From contig NZ_JBKJTG010000251.1 of the NCBI RefSeq assembly GCF_046590535.1, positions 10,995 to 74,994 of the forward strand: 64,000 nt of DNA, given 5' to 3'. Below the pieces are notes generated by a model that did no database searches, was not told where the DNA came from, and was given only the letters and a program-made list of their open reading frames with translations. Origin of the DNA: Phenylobacterium sp. (GTDB taxonomy: Bacteria > Pseudomonadota > Alphaproteobacteria > Caulobacterales > Caulobacteraceae). The translations under genes and the position numbers were made by a program. Below, piece after piece: positions 18,327 to 40,056 of this stretch (its first letter is position 1; the number at the start of each line of letters is the position of its first letter).

Positions 18327-18392
18327 CCGCAGCGCTTCGCCGTTTTCAAGCCGCGCACACGGGATCATTCTGGGCTAAGGCCGTTGCGGCCC

Positions 18393-21527: not shown

Positions 21528-23239
21528 TGATCCTTCCCACCGCAGCGGATCGCGCCGTCCGGCTCGCTGACTTCGCGACCCTCACCGAGGCCCTGGATTT
21601 CGCCGCCACCGGCGAGACCGGCCTCACCCTCCACGCCATGCGCGGCGACGTGGCCGAGGCGCTCTCCTATGGTCGCCTGCGCGAGGACGCCCTGGCCCTG
21701 GCCCCGCGCCTGCTGGCCGCGGGTCTTGAGCCCGGCGAACGGGTCGGCCTGGTGGCCGAGACCGACGGCGACTTCCTGCGCGCCTTCTTCGCCTGCCAGT
21801 ATGCCGGCCTGATCCCCGCGCCTCTGCCGCTGCCCGCCCCGCTGGGCGGACGCGAGGCCTATGTGGCGCAGGTCACCCGGATGCTGGAGGCCGCCGACGC
21901 CGCGGCCGTCGTGGGTCCTGCGGCTATTACCGCCTGGATGGCCGACGCGCCGCCGGCCGCGGTCCGCTTCGTGGGCGCCCTGACCGACCTGCCCCCGGCC
22001 GCGGGGGCGCCCCTTCCTGACATACGTCCGGACGATCCCTGCTACTTGCAGTTCTCCTCGGGCAGCACGCGCTTTCCCACCGGCGTGCTGGTGACCCATC
22101 GGGCCCTGATGGCCAACGCCCAGGCGATCGTGCGCCACGGCCTGCAAGTGCGGCCCGCCGACCGGGCGAGTTCGTGGCTGCCGCTTTATCATGACATGGG
22201 GCTGGTGGGCTTCGTGCTGACCCCGCTGGCCTGCCAGATGTCGGTGGACCTGCTGCCAACCGGCGCCTTCGTCCGCCGCCCCTTGTTGTGGCTGGAGCTG
22301 ATCAGCCGCAACGGCGCGACCATCTCCTACAGCCCGACCTTCGGCTATGAGCTCTGCACCCGGCGCGCCGACCGCGCCGGGCCCGAGGCCCTGGACCTCT
22401 CGCGCTGGCGCATCGCCGGCCTCGGCGGCGACATGATCCGCTCCGGACCCTTGCGCGACTTCGCCCGCCAGTTCGGCCCCGCCGGCTTCTCGGCGGACGC
22501 CTATGTGACCAGCTACGGCATGGCCGAGGCCACCCTGGCGCTGAGCATGGCGCCCCTGGGCCGCGGCCTGGCGGTGGAGACCCTCGACATCGGCAGGCTG
22601 GAACGCGAAAGCCTGGCTGTCACCGGCGCCGCCTCGGATCGCACCCGCGACTTCGCCCGCTGCGGCCCCGCCCTGCCCGGCCACGAGCTGCAGGTGCGCG
22701 GCGACGACGGCCGGCCCCTGGCCGAGCGCGCCGTGGGCCGCATCTTCGCCCGCGGCCCCAGCCTGATGCGCGGCTATTTCCGCCAGCCGGAGGAGACCGG
22801 GCGGGTGCTCTCCGCCGACGGCTGGCTGGACACTGGCGACCTGGGCTTCCTCGACGGCGGCGAGATCGTGCTAACCGGCCGCAGCAAGGACCTGATGATC
22901 GTCAACGGCCGCAACATCTGGCCGCAGGACCTGGAGTGGACCTGCGAGGACGAGTTGCCTGCCGTGCGCAACGGCGACGTGGCCGCCTTCTCCGTACCCG
23001 GGGCTGACGAGGAGCAGGTGGTGGTTCTCGTGCAGGCCCGGGGCCCTGATCTCGCGGTACGCGACGCCCTGCGCGCCGAGGTCGGCCGCGTGCTGCGCCA
23101 GCGGCACAGCGTTGAGGCGGAGGTCAGGCTGGTGGGCCCCCACGCCCTGCCGCAGACCTCGTCGGGCAAGCTCAGCCGCGCGAAGGCGCGCCAGGCCTAT
23201 CTGGCGGGCGCCTTCGATCTGGAGCGCACCCGGGCGTGA
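21527..23239 (+). CDS. fatty acyl-AMP ligase / acyl-ACP synthetase-like adenylating enzyme
   Basis: The ATG overlaps the flippase stop. AMP-binding motifs are YLQFSSGSTRFPTGV, YGMAE, TGDLG, GRSKD and SSGKLSR. Confidence 0.85.
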   Translation: MILPTAADRAVRLADFATLTEALDFAATGETGLTLHAMRGDVAEALSYGRLREDALALAPRLLAAGLEPGERVGLVAETDGDFLRAFFACQYAGLIPAPLPLPAPLGGREAYVAQVTRMLEAADAAAVVGPAAITAWMADAPPAAVRFVGALTDLPPAAGAPLPDIRPDDPCYLQFSSGSTRFPTGVLVTHRALMANAQAIVRHGLQVRPADRASSWLPLYHDMGLVGFVLTPLACQMSVDLLPTGAFVRRPLLWLELISRNGATISYSPTFGYELCTRRADRAGPEALDLSRWRIAGLGGDMIRSGPLRDFARQFGPAGFSADAYVTSYGMAEATLALSMAPLGRGLAVETLDIGRLERESLAVTGAASDRTRDFARCGPALPGHELQVRGDDGRPLAERAVGRIFARGPSLMRGYFRQPEETGRVLSADGWLDTGDLGFLDGGEIVLTGRSKDLMIVNGRNIWPQDLEWTCEDELPAVRNGDVAAFSVPGADEEQVVVLVQARGPDLAVRDALRAEVGRVLRQRHSVEAEVRLVGPHALPQTSSGKLSRAKARQAYLAGAFDLERTRA

Positions 23240-24168
23240 ACCGCGGCCTGGCCGCGGTCACCGGCGCCACGGGGTTCCTGGGCCAGCATGTGGTGCGCGC
23301 CCTGGCCGACGCCGGCTGGCGGGTGCGCATCCTGGCCCGGCGCGATCCTGTAAGCCTGTTCTGGAGCGGCCTGACTCCCGAAGTCATCCCGGGCGACCTC
23401 GGCGACGCGACCGCCCTGGCCCGCCTCTGCACGGGCGCCGACCTGGTGGTCCATGTGGCGGGATTGATTTCCGGCCGCCGTGGCGACCTGCAGCGGGTCA
23501 ATGTCGAGGGGACCCGACGTCTGGCGCAGGCCGTCCTGGGGGCGGCCGTTCCCCGGGTGCTGCACATCTCGAGCCTGGCGGCCCGCGCGCCGCACCTGTC
23601 GGCCTACGCCGCCAGCAAGCGGGCGGGGGAAGACGTGGTGGAGGCCCTGCTGGGCGGGCGGGTGACCCTCGTGCGGCCGCCCGCCGTCTATGGTCCCGGC
23701 GACCGCGAGACGCTGAGGCTGTTCGCTCTTGCGGCCTCAAGTCCCATGTTGCCGGTGCTGGACCCCGCCGCCCGGGTGGCGGTTGTGCACGTCCAAGACG
23801 CGGCGCGGCAGATCGCATGGCTGGTGGATTTCCCGCACGTGGGCCCCTTCTCGCTCAGCGGCGCCCGCCCGGCGGGCTATGAATGGCGCGAGTTGATGCA
23901 GACAGCGGCCACCGCCCTGGACCGGCCCGCGCGGCTCTTGCGCATCCACCCTGTGGCGCTTTACGGCATGGCGTCGCTGGAGGGTATCGCGAATAGCTGG
24001 CGTCAAAGAACGCCCGTGATTACATTCGGCAAGGTCAGGGAACTGACATATTTGGATTGGGGGATCCGGTCGGCCGAGCGCGCCCCAGGCGCGCCGGCGC
24101 CCGAGTTCGACCTGTTGTCGGGGTTCCGGCAGACGATCGGCTGGTATCGATCGCAGGGTTGGCTCTAG
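23236..24168 (+). CDS. NAD(P)-dependent epimerase/dehydratase-family reductase (CerR-like ceramide reductase candidate)
   Basis: The GTG overlaps the upstream TGA (GTGA). Rossmann motif VTGATGFLGQHV. Catalytic YAASK (YxxxK). Confidence 0.8.
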   Translation: MNRGLAAVTGATGFLGQHVVRALADAGWRVRILARRDPVSLFWSGLTPEVIPGDLGDATALARLCTGADLVVHVAGLISGRRGDLQRVNVEGTRRLAQAVLGAAVPRVLHISSLAARAPHLSAYAASKRAGEDVVEALLGGRVTLVRPPAVYGPGDRETLRLFALAASSPMLPVLDPAARVAVVHVQDAARQIAWLVDFPHVGPFSLSGARPAGYEWRELMQTAATALDRPARLLRIHPVALYGMASLEGIANSWRQRTPVITFGKVRELTYLDWGIRSAERAPGAPAPEFDLLSGFRQTIGWYRSQGWL

Positions 24169-24256
24169 CGCATCCGGCCCGGAGTCTCCTGCGTATAGGC
24201 CTGGGCGCTTGCAAGCGCTCAGCAGGAAAGTCGAGGGGCCGTTGGGGGTAGATCAG

Positions 24257-24508
24257 ATGGAGTTGGTGACCGACCTTACGGTCCGGCAGATCGGGCGGAC
24301 GGCCAGCGTCGTCATGCAACGCAACGTCGAAGTAACCCCGGAATCGGACATTGGCCGTGACCTGGGCGTGGATTCACTGACCTTGATGAACATCGTCATG
24401 GAGCTCGAGGACGTGTTCGAGCTGTCCATTCCACTCGATCGCCTGGCGGACGTGGAGACCGTCGGCGACCTGGCGGGACTGATCAACGAATTGCGGGCGA
24501 GGGCGTAA
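24257..24508 (+). CDS. acyl carrier protein
   Basis: 83 aa, acidic, with the phosphopantetheine site LGVDSLTLM. It ends 2 nt before the spt ATG. Confidence 0.85.
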   Translation: MELVTDLTVRQIGRTASVVMQRNVEVTPESDIGRDLGVDSLTLMNIVMELEDVFELSIPLDRLADVETVGDLAGLINELRARA

Positions 24509-24510
24509 GA

Positions 24511-25728
24511 ATGGGGCTTCTCGACAAGCACCTGGGCTATCGGGCCCCGCTGGACCTCATCCGCAGCGTCGGCGCGGACCCGTCCAACGTTCGGTTCGAC
24601 GCCGTCCTGTCGCCCACTGAGGGCATGCTGGACGGCCGCAAGGTCATCTTGCTGGGCACCAACAATTACCTGGGCCTGACCTTCGACCCGGCCTGTATCG
24701 AGGCCTCGGCCGCCGCGGTGCGCAAGTGGGGCACCGGCACCACCGGTTCGCGGTTCGCCAACGGCACCTTCGCCGGCCACCTGGCGCTGGAAGAGGCGCT
24801 GGCCAAATTCTACGGCCGCAAGCATGCCATGGTGTTCACCACCGGCTACCAAGCGAACCTGGGCGTGATGTCCGGCCTCGTGGGCCGCGGCGACCACCTG
24901 ATTCTCGACGCAGACAGCCACGCCAGCATTTACGACGGCGCCCGGCTCTCACAGTCCGAAGTGATCCGCTTCCGCCACAACGACCCGGAAGACCTCTACA
25001 AGCGCCTGAAGCGCCTGGGCGACCGGCCGGGCGGTCGGCTGATCGTCGTGGAAGGCATCTATTCCATGATGGGCGACGTGGCGCCGCTGAAGGAGATCGT
25101 CGCGGTCAAGCGCGAGATGGGCGCCTATCTGCTCGTCGATGAGGCCCACTCCATGGGCGTCCTGGGCGAGAAGGGCCGCGGCCTGGCCGAGGCCGCCGGC
25201 GTCGAGGATGGCGTCGATTTCATTGTCGGCACCTTCTCCAAGAGCCTCGGCAGCGTCGGCGGATTCGTGGTCTCCGACGAAGACGACTTCGACCTGCTGC
25301 GCATCGTCAGCCGGCCTTACATGTTCACCGCTTCCCTGCCCCCCGCCGTGGTCGCCTCGACGCTGACGGCCCTGACCCGCCTGGAGGAGGACTCCGACCT
25401 TCGCCTCAGGCTTGACGAGAATGCCCGCCACCTGTTCGAGGGCCTGCGCGCCCTGGGTTTCGCCATGGGACCGCAGGCCAGCCCGATCGCGGCCGTGGTG
25501 ATGCCCGACCAGGCCACCGCCGTGGGCATGTGGAACGCCCTGATGGCCAACGGCGTCTACCTGAACCTGGCGGTGCCGCCGGCGACGCCGGAGAACCGCT
25601 CGCTGCTGCGCTCCAGCGTCAGCGCCGCGCACTCCCGCGAACAGCTCGACGAGGTACTCCGTGTGTTCGGGCGGCTCGGCCAGGAATTCGGCCTCCTGCC
25701 GAAGCGCGCGCGCCAAGCCTCAGCCTAG
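24511..25728 (+). CDS. spt: serine palmitoyltransferase (alpha-oxoamine synthase family)
   Basis: GTNNYLGL, DEAHSMG and the PLP-lysine motif TFSKSLGSVGG. Adjacent genes are an ACP, a ligase and a reductase rather than biotin genes. Confidence 0.85.
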   Translation: MGLLDKHLGYRAPLDLIRSVGADPSNVRFDAVLSPTEGMLDGRKVILLGTNNYLGLTFDPACIEASAAAVRKWGTGTTGSRFANGTFAGHLALEEALAKFYGRKHAMVFTTGYQANLGVMSGLVGRGDHLILDADSHASIYDGARLSQSEVIRFRHNDPEDLYKRLKRLGDRPGGRLIVVEGIYSMMGDVAPLKEIVAVKREMGAYLLVDEAHSMGVLGEKGRGLAEAAGVEDGVDFIVGTFSKSLGSVGGFVVSDEDDFDLLRIVSRPYMFTASLPPAVVASTLTALTRLEEDSDLRLRLDENARHLFEGLRALGFAMGPQASPIAAVVMPDQATAVGMWNALMANGVYLNLAVPPATPENRSLLRSSVSAAHSREQLDEVLRVFGRLGQEFGLLPKRARQASA

Positions 25729-25770
25729 AGCCTATCCCGTCCAAATGGACCCATTTGAATGGGATAAAAT

Positions 25771-25839
25771 GGCTCCAAATCAAAAGTTTAGAGCATCTTT
25801 CGTCCGAGAACCGCGTCACACTTCTCGGAAGATGCTCTA
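25771..25839 (-). repeat. dispersed hairpin element, copy A (TAGAGC-stem-loop-GCTCTA-AACTTTTGA-N3-TGGAGCC)
   Basis: On the minus strand it reads TAGAGCATCTTCCGAGAA...TTCTCGGACGAAAGATGCTCTAAACTTTTGATTTGGAGCC. The TAG of the arm is the stop codon of the 25837..26745 gene. It sits between convergent genes and a related copy lies at 52428-52498. Confidence 0.6.
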
Positions 25840-26745
25840 GCGACCCGCCCGCCACATCCGCCACAGGACCCCGGGCGCCGCCAGGATCGGGTGGCGCTCA
25901 CGCCAGGGCGTCACCTCGATCGCGAGGCCGGTGTGCCGCTCGAGCTTCCACGCCGCATAGCTGGCCGCGCCGTCGAAGGTGAAAGCCGCCTTTACCAGCC
26001 TTGCGATGTTCAGCGGCCGCCCCAGCGCCCGGCGTAGGCGCCAGGCGCGCACCAGGCGCCGCCGCTCCGGCGCGGATATCTGCGGGGTCAGCGCTCCGTC
26101 GTCCCCGGCCTCCACGGCGATTCCGCCGGCGCGCCAGGCGGCGGCCACCAGCCGGTTGTAGCGGTCGCCGTCGGCGACCAGCAGGGTAGCTTCCCGGCCG
26201 CGCTCCACCCGGAACTCGGCGGCGTAGGTTTCGCGAAACAGGCTCGTCCAGAAGTCGACCGGCCGTCCCTGGACCGGGCCGAGGGCGGCGGCGAACCGGG
26301 CCGCCGTCTTGGCGGCCTCCGCGACCGCGTCGGCCACCGCCTGGGCGGTCTCGGGGCTGTCGCTCCACACCAGGGCGGCCGGTTGGACAAAGCGGGTCCA
26401 GATGGTGGTGTCGGCGCCACGACCCGTAACGGCGCGCCGGAACTGGGTCAGCGTCATGGCCGCGACCTTGGCCCGCAGCTGCCCCTGGTCATCGGAAGTC
26501 TCGCGATAGCTGACGTCCGGCCACAGGCCGCGGCTGGCGATCCCGCGCAGGCCTCGGGGCGAAGTGCGGGTGAGGACATAGAAATCCAGCACCCCGTCGC
26601 GGTCTCCGGTGCGCAGGGCCGAGCCGTAGAACAGCACCGCCACCGGGTCGTCGAAGGCCTCGGCCAGCGTGCGGGCGAAGGCCACCGCGGAGGCCGGCGC
26701 CGGCTGGGCAAGGTCTTCGCCGATGATCTGCGCCAGGTCGGTCAC
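25837..26745 (-). CDS. hypothetical protein with a nucleotidyltransferase-fold motif (possibly Tam41/Mmp37-like cytidylyltransferase; CpgC-position gene)
   Basis: The GTG start forms a GTGA overlap with the kinase stop. LFYGSALRTGDRDGVLDFYVL resembles a G-S...D-x-D NTase motif. Only the last 302 codons of the 505-aa ORF are used. Confidence 0.55.
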   Translation of the reverse strand: MTDLAQIIGEDLAQPAPASAVAFARTLAEAFDDPVAVLFYGSALRTGDRDGVLDFYVLTRTSPRGLRGIASRGLWPDVSYRETSDDQGQLRAKVAAMTLTQFRRAVTGRGADTTIWTRFVQPAALVWSDSPETAQAVADAVAEAAKTAARFAAALGPVQGRPVDFWTSLFRETYAAEFRVERGREATLLVADGDRYNRLVAAAWRAGGIAVEAGDDGALTPQISAPERRRLVRAWRLRRALGRPLNIARLVKAAFTFDGAASYAAWKLERHTGLAIEVTPWRERHPILAAPGVLWRMWRAGR

Positions 26746-27647
26746 GGAGTCAGGAACCGCAGGGGCGGCGCCTCGGTCACGGTCAGGTCGCCACCGGGAT
26801 AGACCTCGCCATCGAGAACGAAGGGGCTGTCGAGGGTAAGCCGTAGGGACGCGGCGTCGCCGCGCCGGTAGCCATGGCGCTCCAGCCAGCGGTCGCGCCG
26901 GGTCCACAGCAGCGCCGGCAACGCCTGCGCCAGGCGTTGCGGCGGGGCCTGTACGTCCAGGTACTTCAACCCCGGCCGGGCGGGGCCGAAGGGCCGAAGC
27001 GCGAAGGGCAGTCGGTGCAGGGTGGTGGCCATGGTGATCAGCCGGGGGCCGGACCGCGCGGGGCCGTCGTCGACGGTGAGCGTCAGGGGCGCCCCGCGAC
27101 GCCAGGCGCCGCGCGCGTTCTCCGCCGCGAACTGGGCGACGGCGCCGGCCAGGGTCAGGCCCACCGACGCGTTCTGGAAAACCCCCGCCCGATGGACGCC
27201 GGCGGCAAGGGCCGTGGCTCTCACCAAGCCCGCGGCGCCGAAGACGAAGCCCTGCAACGGCGGCTGGCCGTCGCGGTTGACCTGCAGCGGCGCGCGGACC
27301 CGCACTTTGGGCTTCACTTTCCCGGCCGCCGCCCGGGCGTCGGCGAGGGTCCATGATCGCCGGACGCCCAGGTCGAAGGCCAGGATGTTTGTCTTGCCGG
27401 ACGGGATCACCGAGAGCAGCGGCGCCTCGCCGAACGCAGCCGGCAGGGCGCTAAGCACCTCGCGCACGGTGCCGTCGCCGCCATCGATGACCAGCAGTTC
27501 GACGCCCTCGGCCACGAACCGCGCCAGGTCTGCCGCCAAGGCCCCCGGGGACAGGGGCTCGGCGAATAGCAGGCCGGGTTCGCTGGGCGCAGCGGGGGCG
27601 CCTCGGTTCCCATGGCTGCGCGGATTGCGGATCACGCCGGTGCGCAT
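26742..27647 (-). CDS. DAG-kinase-fold lipid kinase (ceramide kinase CpgB-like)
   Basis: Start MRTGVIRNPRSHGN overlaps the upstream stop (TGATG). DAGK catalytic motif LLVIDGGDGTVREV. Second motif IPSGKTNILAFDLG. Confidence 0.8.
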   Translation of the reverse strand: MRTGVIRNPRSHGNRGAPAAPSEPGLLFAEPLSPGALAADLARFVAEGVELLVIDGGDGTVREVLSALPAAFGEAPLLSVIPSGKTNILAFDLGVRRSWTLADARAAAGKVKPKVRVRAPLQVNRDGQPPLQGFVFGAAGLVRATALAAGVHRAGVFQNASVGLTLAGAVAQFAAENARGAWRRGAPLTLTVDDGPARSGPRLITMATTLHRLPFALRPFGPARPGLKYLDVQAPPQRLAQALPALLWTRRDRWLERHGYRRGDAASLRLTLDSPFVLDGEVYPGGDLTVTEAPPLRFLTP

Positions 27648-28780
27648 CAGCGGGAGAGCCAGGACACCACCGCGCCGCGCGGGACTGCCGCCGCCTGGAC
27701 GCATTGCGCCAAATGCACCACGAAGCTGATCACCGTCCAGACGGCCACGGCCAGGATGCCGATGTCCGGCCGCCCGGCGAGGACCGCCAGGGTGAGCAGG
27801 ATCAGGTTCGGATTGCGCCGGGCGGTGATCAGCCGGAAGAAGCTGTCAAACGGCCGCCAGGCGTGCATCTCCACCTTGAAGGCGCCCAGGAAGATCCCTT
27901 CCAGCACCCGCTGCGCCACGTAGCCGCCGACGACGATCCAGATGACCGCGCCCGGAGCGGTGAGCGGGTGCGGGCCGGCCTGCGCGCCCATCACCCAGGC
28001 GGCCCACCAGAACGGTGGATGAATCAGGTCGATGCCGTGGTCGAAGACGTTGCCCAGGGGCGAAGATTTCAGGGTCACCCGGGCGAGCTTGCCGTCGACG
28101 GTGTCCAGGAAGGTCATCACCCACGCCGCCGCCAGGCCCCAGCCGAACTGGCCGGTCCAGAACAGCCAGAGCGCCGCCAGCACCAGCAGCAGGCTGGCGA
28201 AGGTCACCTGGTTGGGGGTGATCCCGGCCAGGGCGCACCAACGGGTCACCACCCGGGCCGGCGCGGGCCAGACATACTTGGTCACCAGGTCCGTGACGCC
28301 CTTGTAGGAACCCTGGAACAGCCGCTTCTCCACCTGGCGGACATTGTCGGCGGTAAGCCGTTCCAGCACCGGCGGCTCGCGCTTGCGCAGCGTGCTGTTG
28401 TAGGCGCCCAGCAGGTCCAGGGCGGTGAGCCGCTGGGCGAGATCATGGCCGAGGTCGCCGGCGTCCAGGCCCTGCGCCGCCGCGGCCGCCAAAGGGCCTG
28501 CAATATGCGCCGCCACCGGCCGGCCGGTGGTGTCAACCAGCACGGCCCCGGGACGTTCCGCCAGGGCGCGGATCAGGGCTTCGTCGAACACCCAGCCGGC
28601 ATGGGCCAACACCACCGTCGCGTCGGCGGCTGCATCCCCAGGCTGGACTTCGGCCAGGTCCAGGCGGGCGAAGGTGCGGCTCAGCCGGGCGCTGGAGCTG
28701 GCGCCCCACACCCGCACGCCGGAGGCGCCGACGGTCGCCGCCAGCGGCCTCGCCGGGCCCGCACGCAACGCATTGGTCAA
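27647..28780 (-). CDS. CDP-alcohol phosphatidyltransferase family protein with an N-terminal soluble extension
   Basis: Exact family signature D-x2-DG-x2-AR-x8-G-x3-D-x3-D in DTVDGKLARVTLKSSPLGNVFDHGIDLIH. Polytopic C-terminal half. The start is uncertain: TTG at 28780 is preferred, and ATG at 28897 would overlap the divergent gene. Confidence 0.85.
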   Translation of the reverse strand: MTNALRAGPARPLAATVGASGVRVWGASSSARLSRTFARLDLAEVQPGDAAADATVVLAHAGWVFDEALIRALAERPGAVLVDTTGRPVAAHIAGPLAAAAAQGLDAGDLGHDLAQRLTALDLLGAYNSTLRKREPPVLERLTADNVRQVEKRLFQGSYKGVTDLVTKYVWPAPARVVTRWCALAGITPNQVTFASLLLVLAALWLFWTGQFGWGLAAAWVMTFLDTVDGKLARVTLKSSPLGNVFDHGIDLIHPPFWWAAWVMGAQAGPHPLTAPGAVIWIVVGGYVAQRVLEGIFLGAFKVEMHAWRPFDSFFRLITARRNPNLILLTLAVLAGRPDIGILAVAVWTVISFVVHLAQCVQAAAVPRGAVVSWLSR

Positions 28781-28858
28781 GATCGCTCGCCCCTGTAAAC
28801 GCTTATCCGCTGTCTTACGCCGCTCCGGCGCGGACTGGCCACAAGCTACGGACCACCC

Positions 28859-29761
28859 TTGCCTTTGTTTCGCCTGGCCCACCTCTCTGACCCGCACCTG
28901 CCGTCACCCCTGACCCTGGGACCGGCCGGCGAGCTGGTCTCCAAGCGGACGCTCAGCCGGCTGGCCTGGCGACGCAAGCACCGGCAACACGATCCGGCGG
29001 TCCTGGGGCAGATCAGCGCCGACATCACCGCCTACGCCCCCGACCACATCGCGCTCACCGGCGACCTGACCAACTTCTCCACCCAGGCCGAATTCGCCGC
29101 CGCCCGCACATGGCTGGAGTCGCTAGGCCCCGCAGACCGAGTGACCGTCAGCCCCGGCAACCACGACGCCCTGACTGCGGACGCGCAGGCCGACCGGGTC
29201 GCGGCGTTCGGGCCCTGGTTCGGCGATGGTGGCGAGGCGCACTTTCCCAGGGTTCGCCGGCGCGGCCCCGTCGCGCTGGTCAACCTCTGCTCGGCGGTCC
29301 CCACGCCGCCGCTCTTGGCCAGCGGCCGGCTGGGCGAGGCGCAGCTCGAACGACTTTCGCAGGCGCTGGACGACCTGGGCCGCGAAGGCCTGTTCCGCGT
29401 CGTGTTGCTGCACCATCCGGCGGGCGCCGGCGTGGTGTCGCGGCGCAAGGCGCTGGCGGACGGGCCCGAGTTTCGGGAGGTGTTGCGGCGTCATGGGGCT
29501 GAGCTGGTGCTGCACGGCCACGCCCACGAGGCGGTGTTCGGCGTGGTGGCGGGTCCACACGGGCCGATCCCGGTGCTGGGCGTCCCCTCCGCCTCGGCGC
29601 CTTCAGGAACGCAACACGCCGCCGCCCGCTGGCACGCCATCGAGATCGAGCCGGGTGAGGGCCTGCGGGTGATCGCCCGCGGTCTGGAAGCCCGGTCCGG
29701 CGAGGTCGGCGAGCTGGGCCGGTACGCCCTGCCCGGCCTCAGCGCAGGTATCGCAGCCTGA
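28859..29761 (+). CDS. metallophosphoesterase
   Basis: Motifs HLSDPH, TGDLTN, GNHD, HHP and GHAH occur in canonical order. TTG start. Confidence 0.8.
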   Translation: MPLFRLAHLSDPHLPSPLTLGPAGELVSKRTLSRLAWRRKHRQHDPAVLGQISADITAYAPDHIALTGDLTNFSTQAEFAAARTWLESLGPADRVTVSPGNHDALTADAQADRVAAFGPWFGDGGEAHFPRVRRRGPVALVNLCSAVPTPPLLASGRLGEAQLERLSQALDDLGREGLFRVVLLHHPAGAGVVSRRKALADGPEFREVLRRHGAELVLHGHAHEAVFGVVAGPHGPIPVLGVPSASAPSGTQHAAARWHAIEIEPGEGLRVIARGLEARSGEVGELGRYALPGLSAGIAA

Positions 29762-30212
29762 TGCGGATGGTGTTGTCCCCCGGTCCGACCGGAAAGCGCA
29801 CGGCCCGCAGGGGCGGCAGGGCGGCGGGCGTCGGCGGATCGTTGGAGAACCCGAACCCTTCCGCCGGCAGGCCCACCACCGTGCGGTCGAAATCGCTGTC
29901 GGCGTCGGCGTCATGATAGACCGCCACCGCATAGTATCCGGGCCGCGCCAGGTTGAAGCAGGCGGACGTGACCGGCGCCTGGGCCTTGGGCCGCACCCGC
30001 GCCAGCTTGCCGCCCGGCGCCAGGAAGCGCGTCGCCATGTCGGGATAGACGGTCATGGCCACCTGGCCGCGGGCCGCGCGCACGCCGCTGACCTGGACCG
30101 TGAGGGTCGAGGCGCCCGGCTGGCCCTCGCAATCGGCGGCCACGGCTGCGGGCGCCCACAGGCCAAGGGCGGCGGCCAGGGGGATCAAGGCCGATGTCCT
30201 TGCTGATTTCAC
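29739..30212 (-). CDS. DUF2141-like secreted protein
   Basis: Signal peptide. Then VAMTVYPD...F........., YAVAVYHDADADSDFDRTVVGLPAEGFGFSND, typical of DUF2141. Confidence 0.7.
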   Translation of the reverse strand: MKSARTSALIPLAAALGLWAPAAVAADCEGQPGASTLTVQVSGVRAARGQVAMTVYPDMATRFLAPGGKLARVRPKAQAPVTSACFNLARPGYYAVAVYHDADADSDFDRTVVGLPAEGFGFSNDPPTPAALPPLRAVRFPVGPGDNTIRIRLRYLR

Positions 30213-30273
30213 GGGGATGGACGAGCCTCTCGATGTATCAACCGCTGCACGTTACGGCAGGCAAGACGCCCAG

Positions 30274-30711
30274 ATGACCAACGCCACCGCCGTCAGCTTC
30301 GGCTTCCCCGAAACCTTGGTGGGCGAGACCAGGTCCTGGCTGGTGCTCGCGCGTCCCAAGCAGCCGACATTTGGCGCGCTCGTGCTAATTTGCAAGGAGG
30401 AGGCCCAGGCCTTCTCTGACCTCAGCGCCACAGCCTTCGCCGATCTTGGCCTCGCCGTGAGCGCCGTCGAGACCCTGCTTCGCAAGGTCGTGGGCTACCA
30501 GCAGATCAACTACCTGATGCTGATGATGGTCGACCGCGATGTCCATTTCCACGTGATCCCGCGCTACCAGGGCGAGCGCGTCCACGAGGGCATGAGCTTC
30601 CCCGACGCCGGCTGGCCGGGCCAGCCCGACCTGGGCGCCGCGATGGACCTGGGTCCCGAGGGCGCCGCGCGCCTGGCGGCGTTCCTGCGGCAGCAATGGC
30701 CCGCAGCTTGA
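30274..30711 (+). CDS. HIT-family (histidine triad-like) nucleotide hydrolase/transferase
   Basis: DRDVHFHVIPRY is a degenerate HxHxH motif, and the size fits the family. An alternative ATG lies at 30217. Confidence 0.65.
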   Translation: MTNATAVSFGFPETLVGETRSWLVLARPKQPTFGALVLICKEEAQAFSDLSATAFADLGLAVSAVETLLRKVVGYQQINYLMLMMVDRDVHFHVIPRYQGERVHEGMSFPDAGWPGQPDLGAAMDLGPEGAARLAAFLRQQWPAA

Positions 30712-31934
30712 GCCGAAAGCCGAGATCCGAGGGGGCGGCGCCGCATCTGGCCCTGATCGACCGCTACGTGCTGCGCATGACGGCCTGGCCTATGTTGGGC
30801 TGCCTGGGGGTCACCGTCACCTCCCTGCTCTTGGAGCGCACCTTGCGGCTGCTGGACCTCCTGTCGCAGTCCAATAGCCGGTTCGGATCGGTCCTGGAGC
30901 TGACCGCCAACCTGCTGCCCCACTACCTGGGCCTGGCCCTGCCGGTGGCCTTCTTCGTGGCCCTGTTCATCGTCATCACCAAGCTGGATGACGGCTCGGA
31001 GATCGAGGCCTTCCTGGCCAGTGGCGTGCCGCTCACCCGGCTGGCGGCGCCCTATGTGGCCCTGGGTCTGGTGCTGATGTCGATCAGCCTGGTGGTGTTC
31101 GGCTACCTGCAGCCCTACAGCCGCTACGCCTATCGCGCGGTGCTGCACGCCGCCGTCAACGCCGGCTGGGACGGTCGCCTGCACGGCGGGGCCTTCGTCA
31201 GCGACGGCGACAACATCATGACCGCCGACAGCGCCAGCCTCGAGGGCCGACGTCTGCAGCACGTGTTCATCCGCCGCGCCACGCCCGGCGGCGGCGAGGA
31301 GGTTCTGACCGCCCGCTCGGCGCAGCTCTCCCCCCAGCCGGATGGCAAGACCGTCACCCTGGTCCTGCAGAACGGGGCCCGGCTCAGCGAGAACCGCTCG
31401 GGCGACTTCGACAGCCTGCGCTTCGACACCTTCACCATGCAGACCAATGTGGCGGACGCCGCGGCGCTGCTGCGGTCACGGGGCGGCGACGAGCGCGAGC
31501 TGACGCTTACGGAACTGGCCATCCGCGCCGGATCGCCCATGCCGGTGATCCCGCGCGAGACCCTGCTGGCCGAGCTCTATGGCCGGCTGGCGCGGTCCGT
31601 CGTCCTGCCGTTCCTGCCGCTGATCGCCCTGCCGCTGGGACTGGCCGCCAAGCGCCGCCGCAGGACCGCGGGGCTGCTGCTGGCCGGCGCGCTCCTCCTG
31701 GGTTTCCAGCACGGGCTGCAGTTCGGCCAGGGTCTGGCCGAGACCGGCCGGGTGTCCCCGGAGATCGGCGTCGGCGCCCCCTTCTTCCTGTTCACCGGCT
31801 TCTGCCTGTGGATGTTCGCCGGCAGCCGCCGGCGACCGGGTGAGACGCCCATCGGGCGCTTCGTGCAGGCCCTGGGGGATTCCATAGAACGGCTCCAGGC
31901 GTTGCTCCGCCCGCGCAAGGCGGCAGCCTCATGA
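30696..31934 (+). CDS. LptF/LptG-family (YjgP/YjgQ) permease, LptF-like
   Basis: IDRYVLRM start region, six TM segments and a large periplasmic beta-jellyroll insert between TM3 and TM4. Confidence 0.8.
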   Translation: MARSLSRKPRSEGAAPHLALIDRYVLRMTAWPMLGCLGVTVTSLLLERTLRLLDLLSQSNSRFGSVLELTANLLPHYLGLALPVAFFVALFIVITKLDDGSEIEAFLASGVPLTRLAAPYVALGLVLMSISLVVFGYLQPYSRYAYRAVLHAAVNAGWDGRLHGGAFVSDGDNIMTADSASLEGRRLQHVFIRRATPGGGEEVLTARSAQLSPQPDGKTVTLVLQNGARLSENRSGDFDSLRFDTFTMQTNVADAAALLRSRGGDERELTLTELAIRAGSPMPVIPRETLLAELYGRLARSVVLPFLPLIALPLGLAAKRRRRTAGLLLAGALLLGFQHGLQFGQGLAETGRVSPEIGVGAPFFLFTGFCLWMFAGSRRRPGETPIGRFVQALGDSIERLQALLRPRKAAAS

Positions 31935-32992
31935 GGCTTGGCGGCTACGTCCTTCGGCTGGTGGCCCTGCGCATCCTGGGCGCCGCCGCCATCCTGCTGG
32001 CCGTCCTGCAGATCCTCGACCTCCTGGAAGTCACTCCGGAGATCGTCGAGCGCGGCCTGGGCCTGGCCGGGATCGTGCAGTACGCGGCCCTGCGCCTGCC
32101 GCGGCTGATCGACCAGGCGGCGCCCCTGGCGGTTCTGGCCGGGGGCATCTTCGCCTTCATGAAACTGGCTGGCGACAGCGAGATCGTCGCCATGCGCGCC
32201 TCCGGCGTCTCCGCCTACAAGCTGGTGGCCATGGCCCTGCCGGCGGCTTTGGCGGTGGTGGTGATCGACTTCGCCGCGGTCGAGCTCGTGGCGCCCAGGA
32301 CCGATCCGGCGCTGCAGTCCTGGTGGCGCGCCACCGCCCCGCCAGCGCCCGCCGCGGACCCCAAGCCGAAGGCCTTCCGGGTGGGCGGAGACGTGGTCTC
32401 GGCCGCCACCACCGACCTGACCGGCCGCAGTCTGAAGGACGTGCGGATCTACCGGCGCGACGCAGGCGGCCGCCTCACCGAGCGGATCGACGCGGCCAAC
32501 GCCACCTGGGCGCCCGGCGGCTGGCGGCTGGCCAACCCGCGCTTCGTCAGGTTCAACGCCGCCGGCGCCTCCAGCGGCCAGGCGGCCACCATCACCTGGA
32601 CGGCAGCCTTCGAGCCGGCCGACGTGCAGTCCCTGTTCTTCGGGGAGCAGACCATCTCCGCGGCCTCCGCGGGGCGCGCCCTGGCCGGCGGCGGAGCGCA
32701 GCGGCCGGACAGCTACTACGCCACGCGGCTGCAGCGCTCCATTGCCAGCCCCCTGGGCGGCCTGATCATGCTGCTCCTGGCCGCGCCCATAGCCCTGGCC
32801 AGCTTCCGCTCCAGCCAGGGGGCGATGTTCGTCACCGCCAGCCTGGGCGCGGGCCTGATGTTCCTGGTGGCGGATGGCCTGCTGGCGGCCCTGGGCGAGA
32901 GCGGCGCGGTGTCGCCCCTGCTGGCCGCCTGGACCGCCCCCCTGGTGTTCGCGGCGCTGGGAGCCACGGCGCTGATCCAGTTGGAAGGCTGA
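31931..32992 (+). CDS. LptF/LptG-family permease, LptG-like
   Basis: ATGA overlap with the preceding gene. Architecture is the same as the LptF-like gene. GDSEIVAMRASGVS motif. Confidence 0.8.
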   Translation: MRLGGYVLRLVALRILGAAAILLAVLQILDLLEVTPEIVERGLGLAGIVQYAALRLPRLIDQAAPLAVLAGGIFAFMKLAGDSEIVAMRASGVSAYKLVAMALPAALAVVVIDFAAVELVAPRTDPALQSWWRATAPPAPAADPKPKAFRVGGDVVSAATTDLTGRSLKDVRIYRRDAGGRLTERIDAANATWAPGGWRLANPRFVRFNAAGASSGQAATITWTAAFEPADVQSLFFGEQTISAASAGRALAGGGAQRPDSYYATRLQRSIASPLGGLIMLLLAAPIALASFRSSQGAMFVTASLGAGLMFLVADGLLAALGESGAVSPLLAAWTAPLVFAALGATALIQLEG

Positions 32993-34125
32993 TGGGCGGC
33001 CTCGCGCTCAGCCCGGTGCGCACCAAGGCCGAGCTCGAACGGTTCATCCGCTTGCCCATGCGCCTGAACGCCCACGACCCGGCCTGGGTCGCGCCGCTCC
33101 TGATGGAACGCCGAGAGGCGCTCTCGGCCAAATCCAACCCGTTCTTCGCCCACGCCGAGGTGGAGATGTGGCTGGCCACCCGCGACGGCGTCGACGTGGG
33201 CCGGATCAGCGCCCAGATCGACCGGCTCGCCCCCCAGGACCGGCAACGTCCCGCCGGCGCCTTCGGCCTGATCGCGGCGGAGGATGACTCGGCCACTTTC
33301 GGCGCCCTGTTCGAGGCGGCGGAAGCCTGGCTGAAGTCTCGTGGGATGGCCGCCGCCATGGGGCCCCTGAACCTGTCGGTGAACGAGGAGGTGGGGCTGC
33401 TGGTGGACGGCTTCCAGACGCCGCCCATGCTGATGATGGGCCACGACCAGCCCTATGTCGCCGGCCGCATTGAGGAACAGGGCTACGTCAAGGCCAAGGA
33501 CATCTACGCCTACATCGGCAGCCTGCACCACGGCCTGGCGCGGCTGTTCGACCGGGCCCGCCGCGACCCCATGCCGGGGGTGGTGCTCCGCCCGCTGGAC
33601 ATGTCGCGATATGCGGCCGAGGTCGCCACTCTCACCGAGATCCTCAATGACGCCTGGCGTGAAAACTGGGGGTTTACGCCCACCACTGAGGCGGAGACCC
33701 GCCACCTGGCCCAGGCGCTCAGGCCAGTGATCGACCCGGGGCTAATCTGGTTCGCCGAGATCGACGGCGAGCCGGCCGGCGTGCTGGTGGGCCTGCCCAA
33801 CGTCAACGAGGCCATCGCGGACCTGGACGGACGGCTGTTCCCGTTCGGCTGGGCCAAGCTTCTCTGGCGGCTGAAGGTGCGCGGCGTGAAGAGCGCCCGG
33901 GTGCCGCTGATGGGCGTGAAGCGCGCCTACGCCGGCACGCTCCGGGGCCAGCGCCTGCCGTTCCTGATGATGGGCGCTGTGATCACGCAGGCCCAGGCGC
34001 GGGGCTATGAACGCTACGAGTACTCCTGGATCCTGGAGGAAAACCTGGCCATGCGACGGATCTGCGAGGCGGCCCACGCGCGCATCTACAAGACCTACCG
34101 GATCTACCAGAAGGCCCTGGCTTGA
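32992..34125 (+). CDS. GNAT-like N-acyltransferase (bacterial ceramide synthase bCerS candidate)
   Basis: The ATG overlaps the lptG-like stop (TGATG). About 377 aa. The N-terminal LERFIRLPMRLNAHDPAWVAPLL region and the acyltransferase-like C-half fit the family. It is co-localised with spt. The assignment rests on context plus family resemblance. Confidence 0.6.
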   Translation: MGGLALSPVRTKAELERFIRLPMRLNAHDPAWVAPLLMERREALSAKSNPFFAHAEVEMWLATRDGVDVGRISAQIDRLAPQDRQRPAGAFGLIAAEDDSATFGALFEAAEAWLKSRGMAAAMGPLNLSVNEEVGLLVDGFQTPPMLMMGHDQPYVAGRIEEQGYVKAKDIYAYIGSLHHGLARLFDRARRDPMPGVVLRPLDMSRYAAEVATLTEILNDAWRENWGFTPTTEAETRHLAQALRPVIDPGLIWFAEIDGEPAGVLVGLPNVNEAIADLDGRLFPFGWAKLLWRLKVRGVKSARVPLMGVKRAYAGTLRGQRLPFLMMGAVITQAQARGYERYEYSWILEENLAMRRICEAAHARIYKTYRIYQKALA

Positions 34126-34904
34126 ACGGCTTCACCGCCCTGGTGCTGGCCGGGTCACGGGTCGGCGCCGATCCCGTGGCGGCCTATGCGGGCGTCACCC
34201 ACAAGGGGCTCATCGTCCTGGATGGCCAGACCCTGTTGGCCCGCGTGCTCCACGCCCTGGACGCCGCCGGCGCGGCGCGCATCTGCGTGTCCTCCAACGA
34301 CCCCGCCATCGACACCGAACTGGCCGCCATCAGCCTCAACGCCAGTGTCGAGAGGATCGAGGCGGGGGCCAGCCCAAGCCTTAGCGTCGCGCAGGCGCTG
34401 GAACACCTGGGCGCGCCGCTGCTCGTGACCACCTGCGACCACGCGCTCCTGCGCCCGGAGTGGATCCGGCAGTTCCGCAAGGACGCGCCGGCCGAGGCCG
34501 ACATCGCGGTCCTGCTCGCCCCTGAAGACGCCGTGCGCGCCGCCGCGCCGCAGACTGAACGGACCTATCTGGCCTTCCGCGATGGGCGCTATTCGGGGTG
34601 CAACCTCTTCCTGCTGCGGACGTCCCGGGCGCGGGCGGCGGTGGATCTCTGGCGCCGCGTCGAGGCGCACCGCAAGCAGCCTTGGCGGATCGCCCTGATG
34701 CTGGGTCCGGCGATGCTGTTCGGCTTCATCCTGCGGCGGCTGACCCTCGACGGGGCTGTTCGCCGGCTGGGCCGCCGTGCAGGGGTGGCGGCCACGGCCG
34801 TCCTGACGCCCTTCGGCCTGGCGGCGGTGGACGTGGACAAGCCCGCCGATCTCGATCTGGTGCGCGCCCTGGTGGCCGCCGGCGATCCGGCTCAGCGCAC
34901 GTAG
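34122..34904 (+). CDS. MobA-like NTP-transferase domain protein
   Basis: The TTG overlaps the upstream TGA. N-terminal ALVLAGSR...KGLIVLDGQTLL nucleotide-binding pattern. Confidence 0.65.
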   Translation: MNGFTALVLAGSRVGADPVAAYAGVTHKGLIVLDGQTLLARVLHALDAAGAARICVSSNDPAIDTELAAISLNASVERIEAGASPSLSVAQALEHLGAPLLVTTCDHALLRPEWIRQFRKDAPAEADIAVLLAPEDAVRAAAPQTERTYLAFRDGRYSGCNLFLLRTSRARAAVDLWRRVEAHRKQPWRIALMLGPAMLFGFILRRLTLDGAVRRLGRRAGVAATAVLTPFGLAAVDVDKPADLDLVRALVAAGDPAQRT

Positions 34905-35608
34905 CTGGCGCCGTTGATGTCGAGCACCGCGCCGGTCATCGACGCCGGCGCCTCCAGCGCCAGGTAGGCGGCGGCGCTGGCCACCTCCGCCGGGTCCGCC
35001 ACCCGGCCCAGCGGGATGTCCGCCAGGAGCTTGTCGCCGCCGCGGCTGGCCACATAGTCGTCCGCCATGCCGGTCATCACGAAGCCCGGGCAGATGGCGA
35101 AGCACAGGATCCCCTGGCCGGCGTAGCCGCGGGCGATCGACTTGCTCATGCCAATCAGGCCGGCCTTCGACGCTGCATAGTGCCAGTGCTGGGGCGAGTC
35201 GCCGCGATAGGCTGCGCGGCTGGCGATATTGACGATCCGCCCGCCGCCGGTGTCCTGGAAGTGCAGCACCGCGCGCCGGCTAAGGTCGGCGGCGGCCTGG
35301 AGATTGATCTGCAGGGTGTTCGCCCAGCCGGCCCGCCAGGCTTCGGGCTCAGCATCCACCGGCAGGGCCTCGAACACGCCGGCGTTGTTCACCAGCACGT
35401 CGATCCGGCCGCCCAGCCGCGCCAGCGCCCGGTCCCACAGGCGGTCGGCCTCGCCGGGCCGGGAAAGGTCGGCGCCCAGAACGCCCCCCCCGTCCGTGCG
35501 GCCGTGGCCGATCACCCGCGCGCCGCGCTCGGCCAGGGTGGCGACGATGGCGGCGCCGATCCCCCGCGTGGAGCCGGTGACGAGGATGTGTCGCGGATCG
35601 GACGTCAC
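34892..35608 (-). CDS. SDR-family oxidoreductase
   Basis: TGSTRGIGAAI (TGxxxGIG), NNAG and YAASKAG (YxxxK). Confidence 0.9.
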   Translation of the reverse strand: MTSDPRHILVTGSTRGIGAAIVATLAERGARVIGHGRTDGGGVLGADLSRPGEADRLWDRALARLGGRIDVLVNNAGVFEALPVDAEPEAWRAGWANTLQINLQAAADLSRRAVLHFQDTGGGRIVNIASRAAYRGDSPQHWHYAASKAGLIGMSKSIARGYAGQGILCFAICPGFVMTGMADDYVASRGGDKLLADIPLGRVADPAEVASAAAYLALEAPASMTGAVLDINGASYVR

Positions 35609-35620
35609 GGAGTTGAGGCC

Positions 35621-36376
35621 CTAGCCGGCCATCGCCCGGGCCGCCCAGCGCTCGGTGAGCGCCAGGTTGCGCGGCAGGTCGGCGGGGAAGTCCATCTCCG
35701 CCCATCCCAGGCCCTCGATGGAGGCGACGCGCACGCAGCCGCTTTCCCGGGCGATCTGGTCGATGACGCTGAGGTACCAGCGCTTCAGGCCCTCGGGACG
35801 GCGCAGCGCGGCTTCCACGTTCGCCCGGAACCGGTCGGCCCCGGGGGCGGAGAACCTCAGGAAGCCGATCGATTCGCCGTTGAACTCGGCGATGGTCTTG
35901 CCGATCGCCAGCAGCACGTCACCGTCGGTCAGCACCCGCATGTCGTCGTCGTCGTAATTGGCCTTGCGGTCGATGGTGACGGTGATCTCGGCGGCGGGGG
36001 CGGCCAGCAGCCGCTCGGCCACGTCGGGCTCGAACAGGGTGTCGCCGTTGAGCAGCAGCACCTCGCCACGCAGTTCCTCGCGCACCAGCCAGCAGGTCGC
36101 GAGGTTGTCGGTGAGCGCATAGAACGGATTGAACAGGGTCCGCACGGTCAGGCCGGGCAGGTCGAGGCCGGCGACTTCAGCGTCCACCGCGTCGGCGCCG
36201 AAGCCGGTGACCACCACCGCCTCGCGCACCCCCACGGCGTGCAGGTTGGCCAGCTGCCAATGCAAGACGGTGCGACCGGAGAGCCCGATCAGGCACTTGG
36301 GCTTGTCGTCGGTCAGCGGCGACAGCCTGCGCCCCTGGCCGGCGCTCAGGATGACGACCTTGGAAACCTTACTCAC
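35621..36376 (-). CDS. sugar/alcohol-phosphate cytidylyl- or nucleotidyl-transferase (LicC/PntC-like)
   Basis: VILSAGQGRRLSPLTDDKPKCL (GxGxRL...KP). The size and C-terminal region resemble phosphocholine/phosphonate cytidylyltransferases. The start is GTG at 36376 or ATG at 36409. Confidence 0.7.
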   Translation of the reverse strand: MSKVSKVVILSAGQGRRLSPLTDDKPKCLIGLSGRTVLHWQLANLHAVGVREAVVVTGFGADAVDAEVAGLDLPGLTVRTLFNPFYALTDNLATCWLVREELRGEVLLLNGDTLFEPDVAERLLAAPAAEITVTIDRKANYDDDDMRVLTDGDVLLAIGKTIAEFNGESIGFLRFSAPGADRFRANVEAALRRPEGLKRWYLSVIDQIARESGCVRVASIEGLGWAEMDFPADLPRNLALTERWAARAMAG

Positions 36377-36668
36377 GGAAAGACCGCCCCCATCGCGACG
36401 CCGTTGCAACGCGCCATTCTACCAGCCACCAGCCGGTTCCGACAGGCGTGGCGGGCAGCCTTTGCGCTGGTGTTCTCGCCAATCGTCGGCCCGCGGCGCA
36501 ATTCCTCGAGCCGGTGCTTGCCCGAGGCAGCTTGGATGGGCCAGATGCTTCTCGTTCGGGGTCGGGTTCGGGTAGGCGTATGACAGGCATGACGAGATGG
36601 CTGCGGAGGGCGGACGCCCTGGCCGCCGTGCTCATCCGGGCCGCCGCGCCGGGAAGCAGTTTTCGCAG

Positions 36669-39657: not shown

Positions 39658-40056
39658 ATGCCTATGAGCACGCGCCAACTTACCGTCCTCGTCGCCGACG
39701 ACGATCCCCTTCTGCGAGCCATCCTGGAGCACAAGCTGAGCGCGGCCGGCTACGCCGTGCACAGCGTCGAGGACGGGCAGGCGGCGCTGGACGCCGCGGC
39801 GCGGCTGCGGCCGGACCTCCTCGTACTCGATGGCATGATGCCGATCATGGACGGCTTCGAGGTCCTGCGGCGGCTGAAGGCCGACGGTGACCTGTGCAAG
39901 ATCATCGTGGTGATGCTGACGGCCCTCAAACGTCAGGAAGACGTCCTGGGGGCGCTCAAGCTGGGGGCGGATGACTACCTCGCCAAGCCGTTCAACCCCG
40001 ATGAACTCGTCGCGCGGCTCGACCGACTCTCAGCGCCGTTGCGGATGGGCCCGTGA
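39658..40056 (+). CDS. single-domain response regulator (REC only)
   Basis: VLVADDD...LLVLDGMMPIMDG...T...AKPF. The stop overlaps the next start (GTGA). Confidence 0.9.
   Translation: MPMSTRQLTVLVADDDPLLRAILEHKLSAAGYAVHSVEDGQAALDAAARLRPDLLVLDGMMPIMDGFEVLRRLKADGDLCKIIVVMLTALKRQEDVLGALKLGADDYLAKPFNPDELVARLDRLSAPLRMGP

Follow-up and report, generated by a model that had tools for sequence, protein, structure and literature searches.

How Gram-negative bacteria bring sphingolipids to their outer membrane had no answer until very recently. The question is touched on by two adjoining genes for LptF/LptG-type permeases (30696-32992) found in a 64-kb stretch of DNA from Phenylobacterium sp. (contig NZ_JBKJTG010000251.1, positions 10,995 to 74,994; hereafter the window, with coordinates counted from its first base), where they immediately precede a candidate bacterial ceramide synthase gene (bcerS). 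A first-pass annotation had seen two possibilities for this pair: the cell's lipopolysaccharide (LPS) machinery co-regulated with sphingolipid synthesis, or a dedicated or dual-substrate extractor of anionic sphingolipids, whose route to the outer membrane it called unresolved. The idea of a dedicated extractor was borne out by published work on Caulobacter crescentus, consisting of a proposal made in 2024 and genetics reported in 2026. With a probability of roughly 0.8, the two window genes encode orthologues of C. crescentus LptF2 (CCNA_01214/CC_1156) and LptG2 (CCNA_01213/CC_1155) and would form a dedicated sphingolipid extractor.

In C. crescentus, the products of CC_1168, CC_1156 and CC_1155 were named LptC2, LptF2 and LptG2 and proposed to export phosphosphingolipids, moving them to the outer membrane together with the CC_1166 flippase; the lpt2 genes show cofitness with sphingolipid genes, and orthologous clusters were described in Hyphomonas, Sphingomonas, Nitrosomonas, Azotobacter and Pseudomonas luteola (Olea-Ozuna, 2024, PMC11324152). 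In April 2026, C. crescentus lptF2, lptG2 and lptC2 were reported to be deletable only in Δspt or ΔcpgB strains, and the F2 and G2 proteins to co-purify as a pair and with the cell's single LptB (Uchendu, Isom and Klein, bioRxiv, 10.64898/2026.04.12.717747). After these two reports, the description of the export route as unresolved is partly out of date. The window therefore holds an orthologue of a known system, and the idea of a dedicated extractor is already published. The locus is probably a clean, independent example of that published answer, a duplicated LptFG(C) for anionic sphingolipids powered by the LPS ATPase. What it adds is comparative support, not discovery: a conserved coupling between exporter and ceramide synthase genes, an LptC2 beyond Caulobacter, and an LptG2 that has kept its coupling glutamate. 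The function proposed for the window pair is taken by orthology from the C. crescentus proteins.

The assignment of the two proteins to the permease family is straightforward. Both aligned with nearly the whole of the Pfam profile PF03739 (positions 1-351 of 353 for LptF2 and 2-351 of 353 for LptG2), with scores (214.6 and 238.6 bits, respectively) far above the gathering cut-off of 27.9 bits. The NCBIfam models told the two apart, LptF2 scoring 184.4 bits with the LptF model (TIGR04407) and 92.6 with the LptG model, and LptG2 226.7 bits with the LptG model (TIGR04408) and 77.4 with the LptF model. A sequence search of the PDB matched LptF2 to LptF chains and LptG2 to LptG chains first. The AlphaFold2 (AF2) model of LptF2 (mean predicted local distance difference test score, pLDDT, 89.7; predicted template-modelling score 0.80) has three long helices (residues 17-156) and further helices (287-404) on either side of a six-strand β domain (167-251), and its top 28 PDB fold matches were all LptF or LptG chains. 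As modelled, LptF2 would have the six transmembrane helices of the family with a periplasmic β-jellyroll between the third and the fourth; hydropathy analysis found 5-6 hydrophobic segments in each of LptF2 and LptG2.

The position of the pair among its relatives was analysed with a joint alignment of 24 LptF and 25 LptG sequences and neighbour-joining trees with 200 bootstraps, a simple method and a small sampling (49 sequences) that make the result indicative only. The canonical pairs included were those of E. coli K-12, P. aeruginosa, Legionella, Neisseria, Ralstonia and Pseudorhodobacter, plus the LptG of Methylobacterium. The F and G trees were congruent. The window F2 and G2 grouped with Caulobacter F2 and G2 (200/200 each) inside a clade of spt-linked copies (200/200 for F, 193/200 for G) apart from the canonical LptFG sampled; this clade also holds the copies of Azospirillales, Nevskiales, Sphingomonas and a Diaphorobacter plasmid. 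The spt-linked lptFG of E. coli and of plasmid pPNP1 grouped instead with beta- and gammaproteobacterial canonical LptFG (F, 200/200; G, 198/200), a separate lineage that points to a separate recruitment. The trees thus suggest two or more recruitments of LptFG into sphingolipid loci, one in the Caulobacter/Azospirillum/Nevskia/Sphingomonas clade, another in an E. coli/Pseudomonas clade.

The same clade bears on another explanation, namely that the pair is the only LptFG of the organism and either transports LPS as well as sphingolipids or serves an envelope devoid of LPS, as proposed for Sphingomonas. S. wittichii is reported to have only the sphingolipid-linked type of lptFG (10.64898/2026.04.12.717747), the Sphingomonas pair lies in the same clade as that of the window, and no further LptF, LptG or LptC paralogue occurs inside the window, which covers 64 kb of a 76.8-kb contig. 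However, in the nearest characterised relatives, those of the genus Caulobacter, the sphingolipid set is a duplicate that stands beside a canonical LptFGC (10.64898/2026.04.12.717747), and it is to these copies that the window pair is closest. In addition, both window proteins scored below the NCBI equivalog cut-offs for LptF (184.4 versus 230 bits) and LptG (226.7 versus 240 bits), although this is a soft criterion. A sole LptFG is accordingly considered unlikely. The equivalog cut-offs were also evaluated as a means of separating canonical from sphingolipid-linked copies, and were rejected for that purpose; a more distant homologue from a sphingolipid context scored 233 bits on the NCBIfam equivalog. 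NCBI names the close homologues 'LptF/LptG family permease'.

The genes were described in the first-pass annotation as a four-gene run, lptF, lptG, bcerS and a MobA-like gene, joined by ATGA, TGATG and TTGA overlaps. The overlaps are as described: the lptF2 stop and lptG2 start share ATGA at 31931-31934, the lptG2/bcerS junction is TGATG at 32990-32994 (bcerS starting at 32992), and the bcerS stop shares TTGA at 34122-34125 with the TTG start of the MobA-like gene. The run begins one gene earlier, however, since the upstream HIT-like open reading frame (ORF) overlaps the start of lptF2, by 16 nt if lptF2 starts at ATG 30696 or by 4 nt (TTGA) if it starts at the in-frame TTG 30708; the run therefore has five genes, not four. 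Another run, whose genes overlap or lie close together, consists of lptC2, the gene in the CC_1167 position, and the flippase-like, acyl-CoA synthetase, CerR-like, acyl carrier protein (ACP) and Spt genes.

To determine how far this arrangement is conserved, LptF2 relatives were looked for in one genome of each species. This gave 539 loci, the best 80 of which were analysed with the proteins of the window locus; they come from Caulobacterales, Azospirillum, Niveispirillum, Oleisolibacter, Aerophototrophica, Euryhalocaulis, Nevskia, Stagnimonas and unclassified metagenome-assembled genomes (MAGs). The lptG2 gene lay directly downstream of lptF2 in 70 of the 71 loci with enough flank, bcerS followed in 65/66, and spt was present in the upstream flank of lptF2 in 60/66. 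The overlaps recurred as well. An overlapping start for lptF2 on the HIT-like gene (usually -4) was available in 66 loci, the lptF2-lptG2 distance was -4 or -1 (an overlapping start being possible in 73/77), that between lptG2 and bcerS was -1 or 0 in Caulobacterales, and that between bcerS and the MobA-like gene was mostly -4. The Azospirillum, Niveispirillum and Oleisolibacter-type loci (L061-L063, L066, L071-L074, L078) have ∼0.8-1.0 kb between lptG2 and bcerS, so that the TGATG coupling has been lost there. Absence of spt/bcerS linkage outside this genome had been named beforehand as a finding that would count against an exporter role; the linkage turned out to be kept in 60-70 loci, in lineages of alpha- and gammaproteobacteria as well as on a plasmid of a betaproteobacterium. 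Since gene order and overlaps recur in ∼70 independent genomes, the arrangement is more than chance.

These data also answer the suggestion of an incidental or decaying arrangement, in which a duplicated lptFG landed in the locus with no specific role. The two ORFs are intact, with a third-position G+C content of 0.92-0.94 (the overall G+C content of the window being ∼70%), the coupling glutamate is conserved, gene order and stop/start overlaps are kept in ∼70 genomes of several orders, and similar spt-lptFG clusters are carried by two IncP-type plasmids, one of them typed as conjugative. An incidental origin is highly improbable and effectively refuted by the conservation data.

A further explanation is that the pair exports some other envelope lipid or glycolipid, for example one made by the gene in the CC_1167 position or by the glycosyltransferase genes at 40053-43641, and that its adjacency to bcerS reflects shared regulation only. 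The identity of the substrate in C. crescentus would rest on genetics, and in a Caulobacteraceae MAG (locus L058, DATJIO010000039.1, 8114-11221) an LptF-like gene whose product is 43% identical to the window LptF2 adjoins genes for a myo-inositol-1-phosphate synthase and a nucleotidyltransferase, with no spt or bcerS within 10 kb. This gene may encode a permease of the Lpt type that is associated with an inositol lipid instead, and its context implies that the family may serve other lipids. On the other hand, the C. crescentus orthologues can be deleted only from strains missing spt or the ceramide kinase gene cpgB, which ties them to the anionic sphingolipid, and the linkage in the 60-70 loci is specifically to bcerS and spt while the flanking genes vary. 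A different cargo for the window pair is therefore regarded as improbable.

For a dedicated sphingolipid extractor, the following mechanism can be envisaged. LptF2 and LptG2 would be the heterodimeric membrane part of an ABC extractor of the LptB2FG type, and the resulting LptB2F2G2 complex would remove anionic ceramide phosphoglycerates from the inner membrane. An anchored LptC2 would likely be the first acceptor, followed by the LptA and LptDE bridge shared with LPS. The ATPase would presumably be the LptB of the LPS pathway, borrowed as in C. crescentus; no Walker A or LSGGQ/E motif was found in any ORF of at least 150 amino acids in the window, which, together with the lack of Lpt paralogues there, fits an ATPase supplied from another part of the genome. 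Translational coupling along the HIT-lptF2-lptG2-bcerS-mobA-like run, and along that from lptC2 to spt, could tie the supply of the exporter to ceramide synthesis, a plausible reason being that an anionic sphingolipid stuck in the inner membrane would be toxic. The present analysis establishes which genes these are, the folds of their products, the overlaps, the orthology and the conservation of the linkage, whereas substrate, direction of transport, role of LptC2 and use of LptA and LptDE are all inferred for the window system.

Several points weigh against a dedicated sphingolipid extractor. The C. crescentus support consists of genetics and co-purification, not of a direct transport or membrane-fractionation assay, and LptC2 did not co-purify with F2 and G2 (10.64898/2026.04.12.717747). 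The function in Phenylobacterium would rest on these C. crescentus orthologues, and were a separate canonical lptFG lacking, the pair would carry LPS too, or the organism would be devoid of LPS. The equivalog cut-offs being soft, it also matters that the spt-linked copies of Sphingomonas and E. coli are annotated as LptF and LptG. Finally, no sequence feature predicting the substrate was found, as the cavity residues examined did not separate spt-linked from canonical LptG. One such signature was evaluated and discarded. Residues K34 and R136 of E. coli/Shigella LptG are lipid A phosphate ligands according to cryo-EM (PMC6744409), and in the clade of the window they are replaced, almost without exception, by Asp and Trp, respectively, which resembled a charge reversal related to the substrate. 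When canonical LptG proteins were included as a control (Methylobacterium, Pseudorhodobacter, Ralstonia, Neisseria and Pseudomonas), Asp, Glu or Ala was found at position 34, and position 136 was variable. Since canonical LptG from non-enterobacteria also lacks K34 and varies at position 136, these residues permit no inference on the substrate.

The coupling-helix glutamates of E. coli, LptF E84 and LptG E88, dock on LptB. The equivalent of LptF E84 in the window, LptF2 E102, was invariant in 78/78 sequences. The equivalent of LptG E88, LptG2 E84 (encoded at ∼32180-32182), was Glu in 22 and Ala in 49 of 71 orthologues. The sequences with Ala are of the Caulobacter type, in which ESA stands in place of the DSE of the window, so that a Glu lies two residues earlier; the Glu at the canonical position is kept in the window copy and in Phenylobacterium-like, Azospirillum and Nevskia copies. 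The Caulobacter-type LptG2 of C. crescentus still binds LptB (10.64898/2026.04.12.717747).

The third Lpt component, LptC2, had been proposed in the first-pass annotation as an LptC-like anchored jellyroll protein, and this gene is real. Its product scored 21.8 bits with the Pfam LptC family (PF06835), marginally above the cut-off of 21, and its AF2 model (pLDDT 83) consists of a helix (residues 11-59) followed by an all-β domain of 14 strands, with one hydrophobic segment at residues 26-44. A sequence search of the PDB gave no match for LptC2, and only the fold comparison worked: the best five PDB matches in a Foldseek search were all LptC chains (6mit_C, E = 1.8e-6), and superposition on crystallised LptC jellyroll domains (4b54, 3my2) gave template-modelling scores of 0.77-0.79 with a root-mean-square deviation of ∼2.5 Å. 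Alternative starts exist at ATG 18393 and at ∼18408. The gene is the first of the lptC2-to-spt operon, and its homologues likewise head the cluster in loci L041, L052 (C. vibrioides OR37) and L081; as it lies 12 kb upstream of lptF2, it falls outside most of the 10-kb flanks analysed. A total of 35 LptC2 homologues were detected, all at least 49% identical and including Phenylobacterium sp. While lptC2 has been said to be one that 'appears to be restricted to Caulobacter species' (10.64898/2026.04.12.717747), its range extends beyond Caulobacter to Phenylobacterium-like relatives. Among the loci from outside Caulobacterales, none showed an LptC2 in the 10 kb next to lptF2.

Compared with known systems, the window locus is most similar to that of C. 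crescentus LptF2 (CCNA_01214), LptG2 (CCNA_01213) and LptC2 (CCNA_01226), with which it shares the gene order, the clade and, judging by the motif search above, the absence of an ATPase gene from the locus. It differs in its host, an uncultured Phenylobacterium-like member of the Caulobacteraceae, in the insertion of a short-chain dehydrogenase (SDR) gene, and in the LptG2 motif described above. The closest protein matches were metagenome sequences (80-82% identity), followed by Phenylobacterium sp. (77%) and Caulobacter spp. (61-64%), and the nearest species-representative genomes were a Phenylobacterium MAG and Caulobacterales MAGs (70-79%, the closest at 78-79%). Look-ups of the exact LptF2 and LptG2 proteins gave no match. 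Relative to the locus of C. vibrioides DSM 9893, identity was 58% for F2, 53% for G2, 63% for bCerS and 71% for Spt; that of LptC2 to C. vibrioides loci was 38%. With the canonical LptB2FGC of E. coli, Shigella and Enterobacter (6MIT, 6MHU, 6S8H) the system shares the PF03739 family, the six transmembrane helices plus β-jellyroll, an F/G heterodimer from overlapping genes, the coupling-helix Glu and an LptC-type partner. In contrast to it, the window genes are not beside pepA but amid sphingolipid genes, identity in structural alignments is only ∼14-22%, and the cargo proposed is a phosphosphingolipid with two chains in place of hexa-acyl lipid A. The Sphingomonadales lptFG (S. wittichii Swit_3905/3906; S. 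parapaucimobilis, locus L089) is likewise linked to genes for Spt, ACP, a reductase and a bCerS-type acyltransferase and belongs to the same large clade. It is, however, reported as the sole copy in an LPS-free organism while the Caulobacter copy is a duplicate, its genes are named LptF and LptG by NCBI, and its locus has no LptC2. The spt-linked lptFG of E. coli (between glcC and pitB, with yghO) and of pPNP1 is a second pair that likewise adjoins genes for an Spt-like aminotransferase, an ACP, a reductase and a fatty acyl-AMP ligase, but is of a different lineage.

The locus as a whole (Table 1) matches the 17-gene C. crescentus cluster CC_1168-CC_1152 gene for gene and in order from 18384 to 36409. 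The sole extra gene is that for the SDR, between the MobA-like and the CC_1152-like genes, to which nothing corresponds in the 80 related loci. The CC_1152-like product is 64-79% identical to its equivalents in Caulobacterales loci. A scan of 17000-36700 for promoters and terminators found nothing exceeding shuffled expectation. The bCerS-like protein had no match in Pfam or NCBIfam and was recognised by its 61-72% identity to the product of the same-position gene of Caulobacter and other Caulobacterales loci; CC_1154 is bCerS (PMC11324152). The gene in the CC_1167 position shares 11 nt with lptC2, and its product had no match in a Pfam search; its equivalents lie mostly beyond the 10-kb flank in the comparison loci. 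A glycerophospho- or glycosyltransferase has been suggested for CC_1167 (PMC11324152). The flippase-like protein is 48-63% identical to that of the corresponding gene in Caulobacter loci. The aasR-like start overlaps the flippase gene by GTGA or TGATG, and the CerR-like gene overlaps the aasR-like gene by GTGA. No Pfam family was found for the CC_1161-like protein. The role of CC_1160 as a ceramide kinase is taken from the S1 Text of PMC11324152. The true start of the CC_1159-like gene may be downstream of the first start codon of its ORF. As to Spt, it passed the equivalog named 'SerpalmtaseBetaP' (655 bits versus a cut-off of 500) and failed 'AlphaP' (491 versus 670), even though its host is an alphaproteobacterium.

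Table 1. Genes of the sphingolipid and lpt2 locus in the window
Gene or product	Coordinates	Strand	Basis of assignment
LptC2-like; N-terminal membrane helix and β-jellyroll	18384..19013	+	Pfam LptC; AF2 fold
Gene in CC_1167 position	19003..20166	+	Position in the PMC11324152 cluster
Wzx/polysaccharide-biosynthesis-type flippase-like membrane protein, CC_1166-like	20163..21527	+	Polysacc_synt 24.8 bits, under the 28.2 cut-off
Acyl-CoA/ACP synthetase, aasR-like	21524..23239	+	Pfam AMP-binding 178.9 bits
NAD-dependent epimerase/dehydratase-family reductase, CerR-like	23236..24168	+	Pfam Epimerase 88.2 bits
Acyl carrier protein, acpR-like	24209..24508	+	Pfam PP-binding 45.5 bits
Serine palmitoyltransferase Spt	24511..25728	+	NCBIfam NF047599 655 bits, cut-off 500
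CC_1161-like protein	25837..26790	-	52-67% identity in related loci
Ceramide kinase-like, CC_1160/CpgB-like	26742..27704	-	Pfam DAGK_cat 39 bits
CDP-alcohol phosphatidyltransferase-family, CC_1159-like	27647..28897	-	Pfam CDP-OH_P_transf 43.1 bits
Metallophosphoesterase, CC_1158-like	28859..29761	+	Pfam Metallophos 43.6 bits
HIT-like, CC_1157-like	30055..30711	+	Pfam HIT 20.4 bits, under the 21.5 cut-off
LptF2, LptF-type permease	30696..31934	+	Pfam PF03739 214.6 bits; 412 aa
LptG2, LptG-type permease	31931..32992	+	Pfam PF03739 238.6 bits; 353 aa
bCerS-like N-acyltransferase, CC_1154-like	32992..34125	+	Identity to same-position genes
MobA-like nucleotidyltransferase, CC_1153-like	34122..34904	+	Pfam NTP_transf_3 58.2 bits
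Short-chain dehydrogenase (SDR)	34892..35608	-	Pfam adh_short_C2 138 bits
Nucleotidyltransferase, CC_1152-like	35621..36409	-	Pfam NTP_transf_3 and NTP_transferase

The HIT-like gene, whose C. crescentus counterpart CC_1157 was called 'probably unrelated' to sphingolipids (PMC11324152), lay directly upstream of lptF2 in 75 loci. Its conserved part begins near 30271, and the motif MVDxDVHFHV[IL]PRY is nearly invariant in 76 orthologues, with Ile or Leu at the place of the third histidine of the classical HxHxHxx triad.

Clusters of this kind were also found outside alphaproteobacterial chromosomes. Plasmid pDCB2 of Diaphorobacter sp. JS3051 (locus L087, NZ_CP065408.1, 2594-24759), a conjugative IncP plasmid, bears a cluster much like that of the window, with genes for a metallophosphoesterase, a HIT protein, two LptF/LptG-family permeases, a CDP-alcohol phosphatidyltransferase (which occupies the place between the lptG2 and bcerS positions), a hypothetical protein of the size of bCerS and a nucleotidyltransferase, as well as a fatty acyl-AMP ligase, an ACP, an Spt-like aminotransferase and an ABC ATP-binding protein. 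Plasmid pPNP1 of Pseudomonas sp. JS425 (locus L094, NZ_CP073662.1, 1-20000), which has an IncP replicon and is typed as non-mobilizable, carries a differently arranged spt-lptFG cluster with lptFG of the E. coli-type lineage. Genes similar to lptF2 occur on Roseomonas megaplasmids as well. The presence of spt-lptFG clusters on IncP-type plasmids makes the module look horizontally mobile. A second lptF-lptG pair lies between pitB and glcC in E. coli (locus L090, PN43 record NZ_MG591698.1, 8937-16716), its neighbours being genes for a fatty acyl-AMP ligase, an epimerase-family reductase, an ACP and an Spt-like aminotransferase, and yghO; this pair was present in 4132 of 5426 complete E. coli genomes. 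The canonical lptFG was seen in K-12 and is assumed for other E. coli because it is essential. It is tempting to regard the cluster as a mobile outer-membrane lipid module that uses the LptB of its host, with Lpt permeases recruited at least twice and the HIT-like protein functional in the operon, but this wider proposal is a tentative one.

Beyond the M14 peptidase gene that flanks the sphingolipid cluster, three overlapping genes at 40053-43641 encode a TPR protein, a HEAT-repeat protein and a family-2 glycosyltransferase, and are followed by a gene for a GAF-PAS-PAS histidine kinase (44350-46389). Among the best 150 cluster representatives at 50% identity, ∼15 (P0160, P0161, P0167, P0172, P0174, P0177, P0185, P0196 and others) have 750-780 amino acids, most of them matching in two stretches, and have the appearance of LptF2 and LptG2 fused into one polypeptide. 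Those sampled among the 150 were still sphingolipid-context copies.

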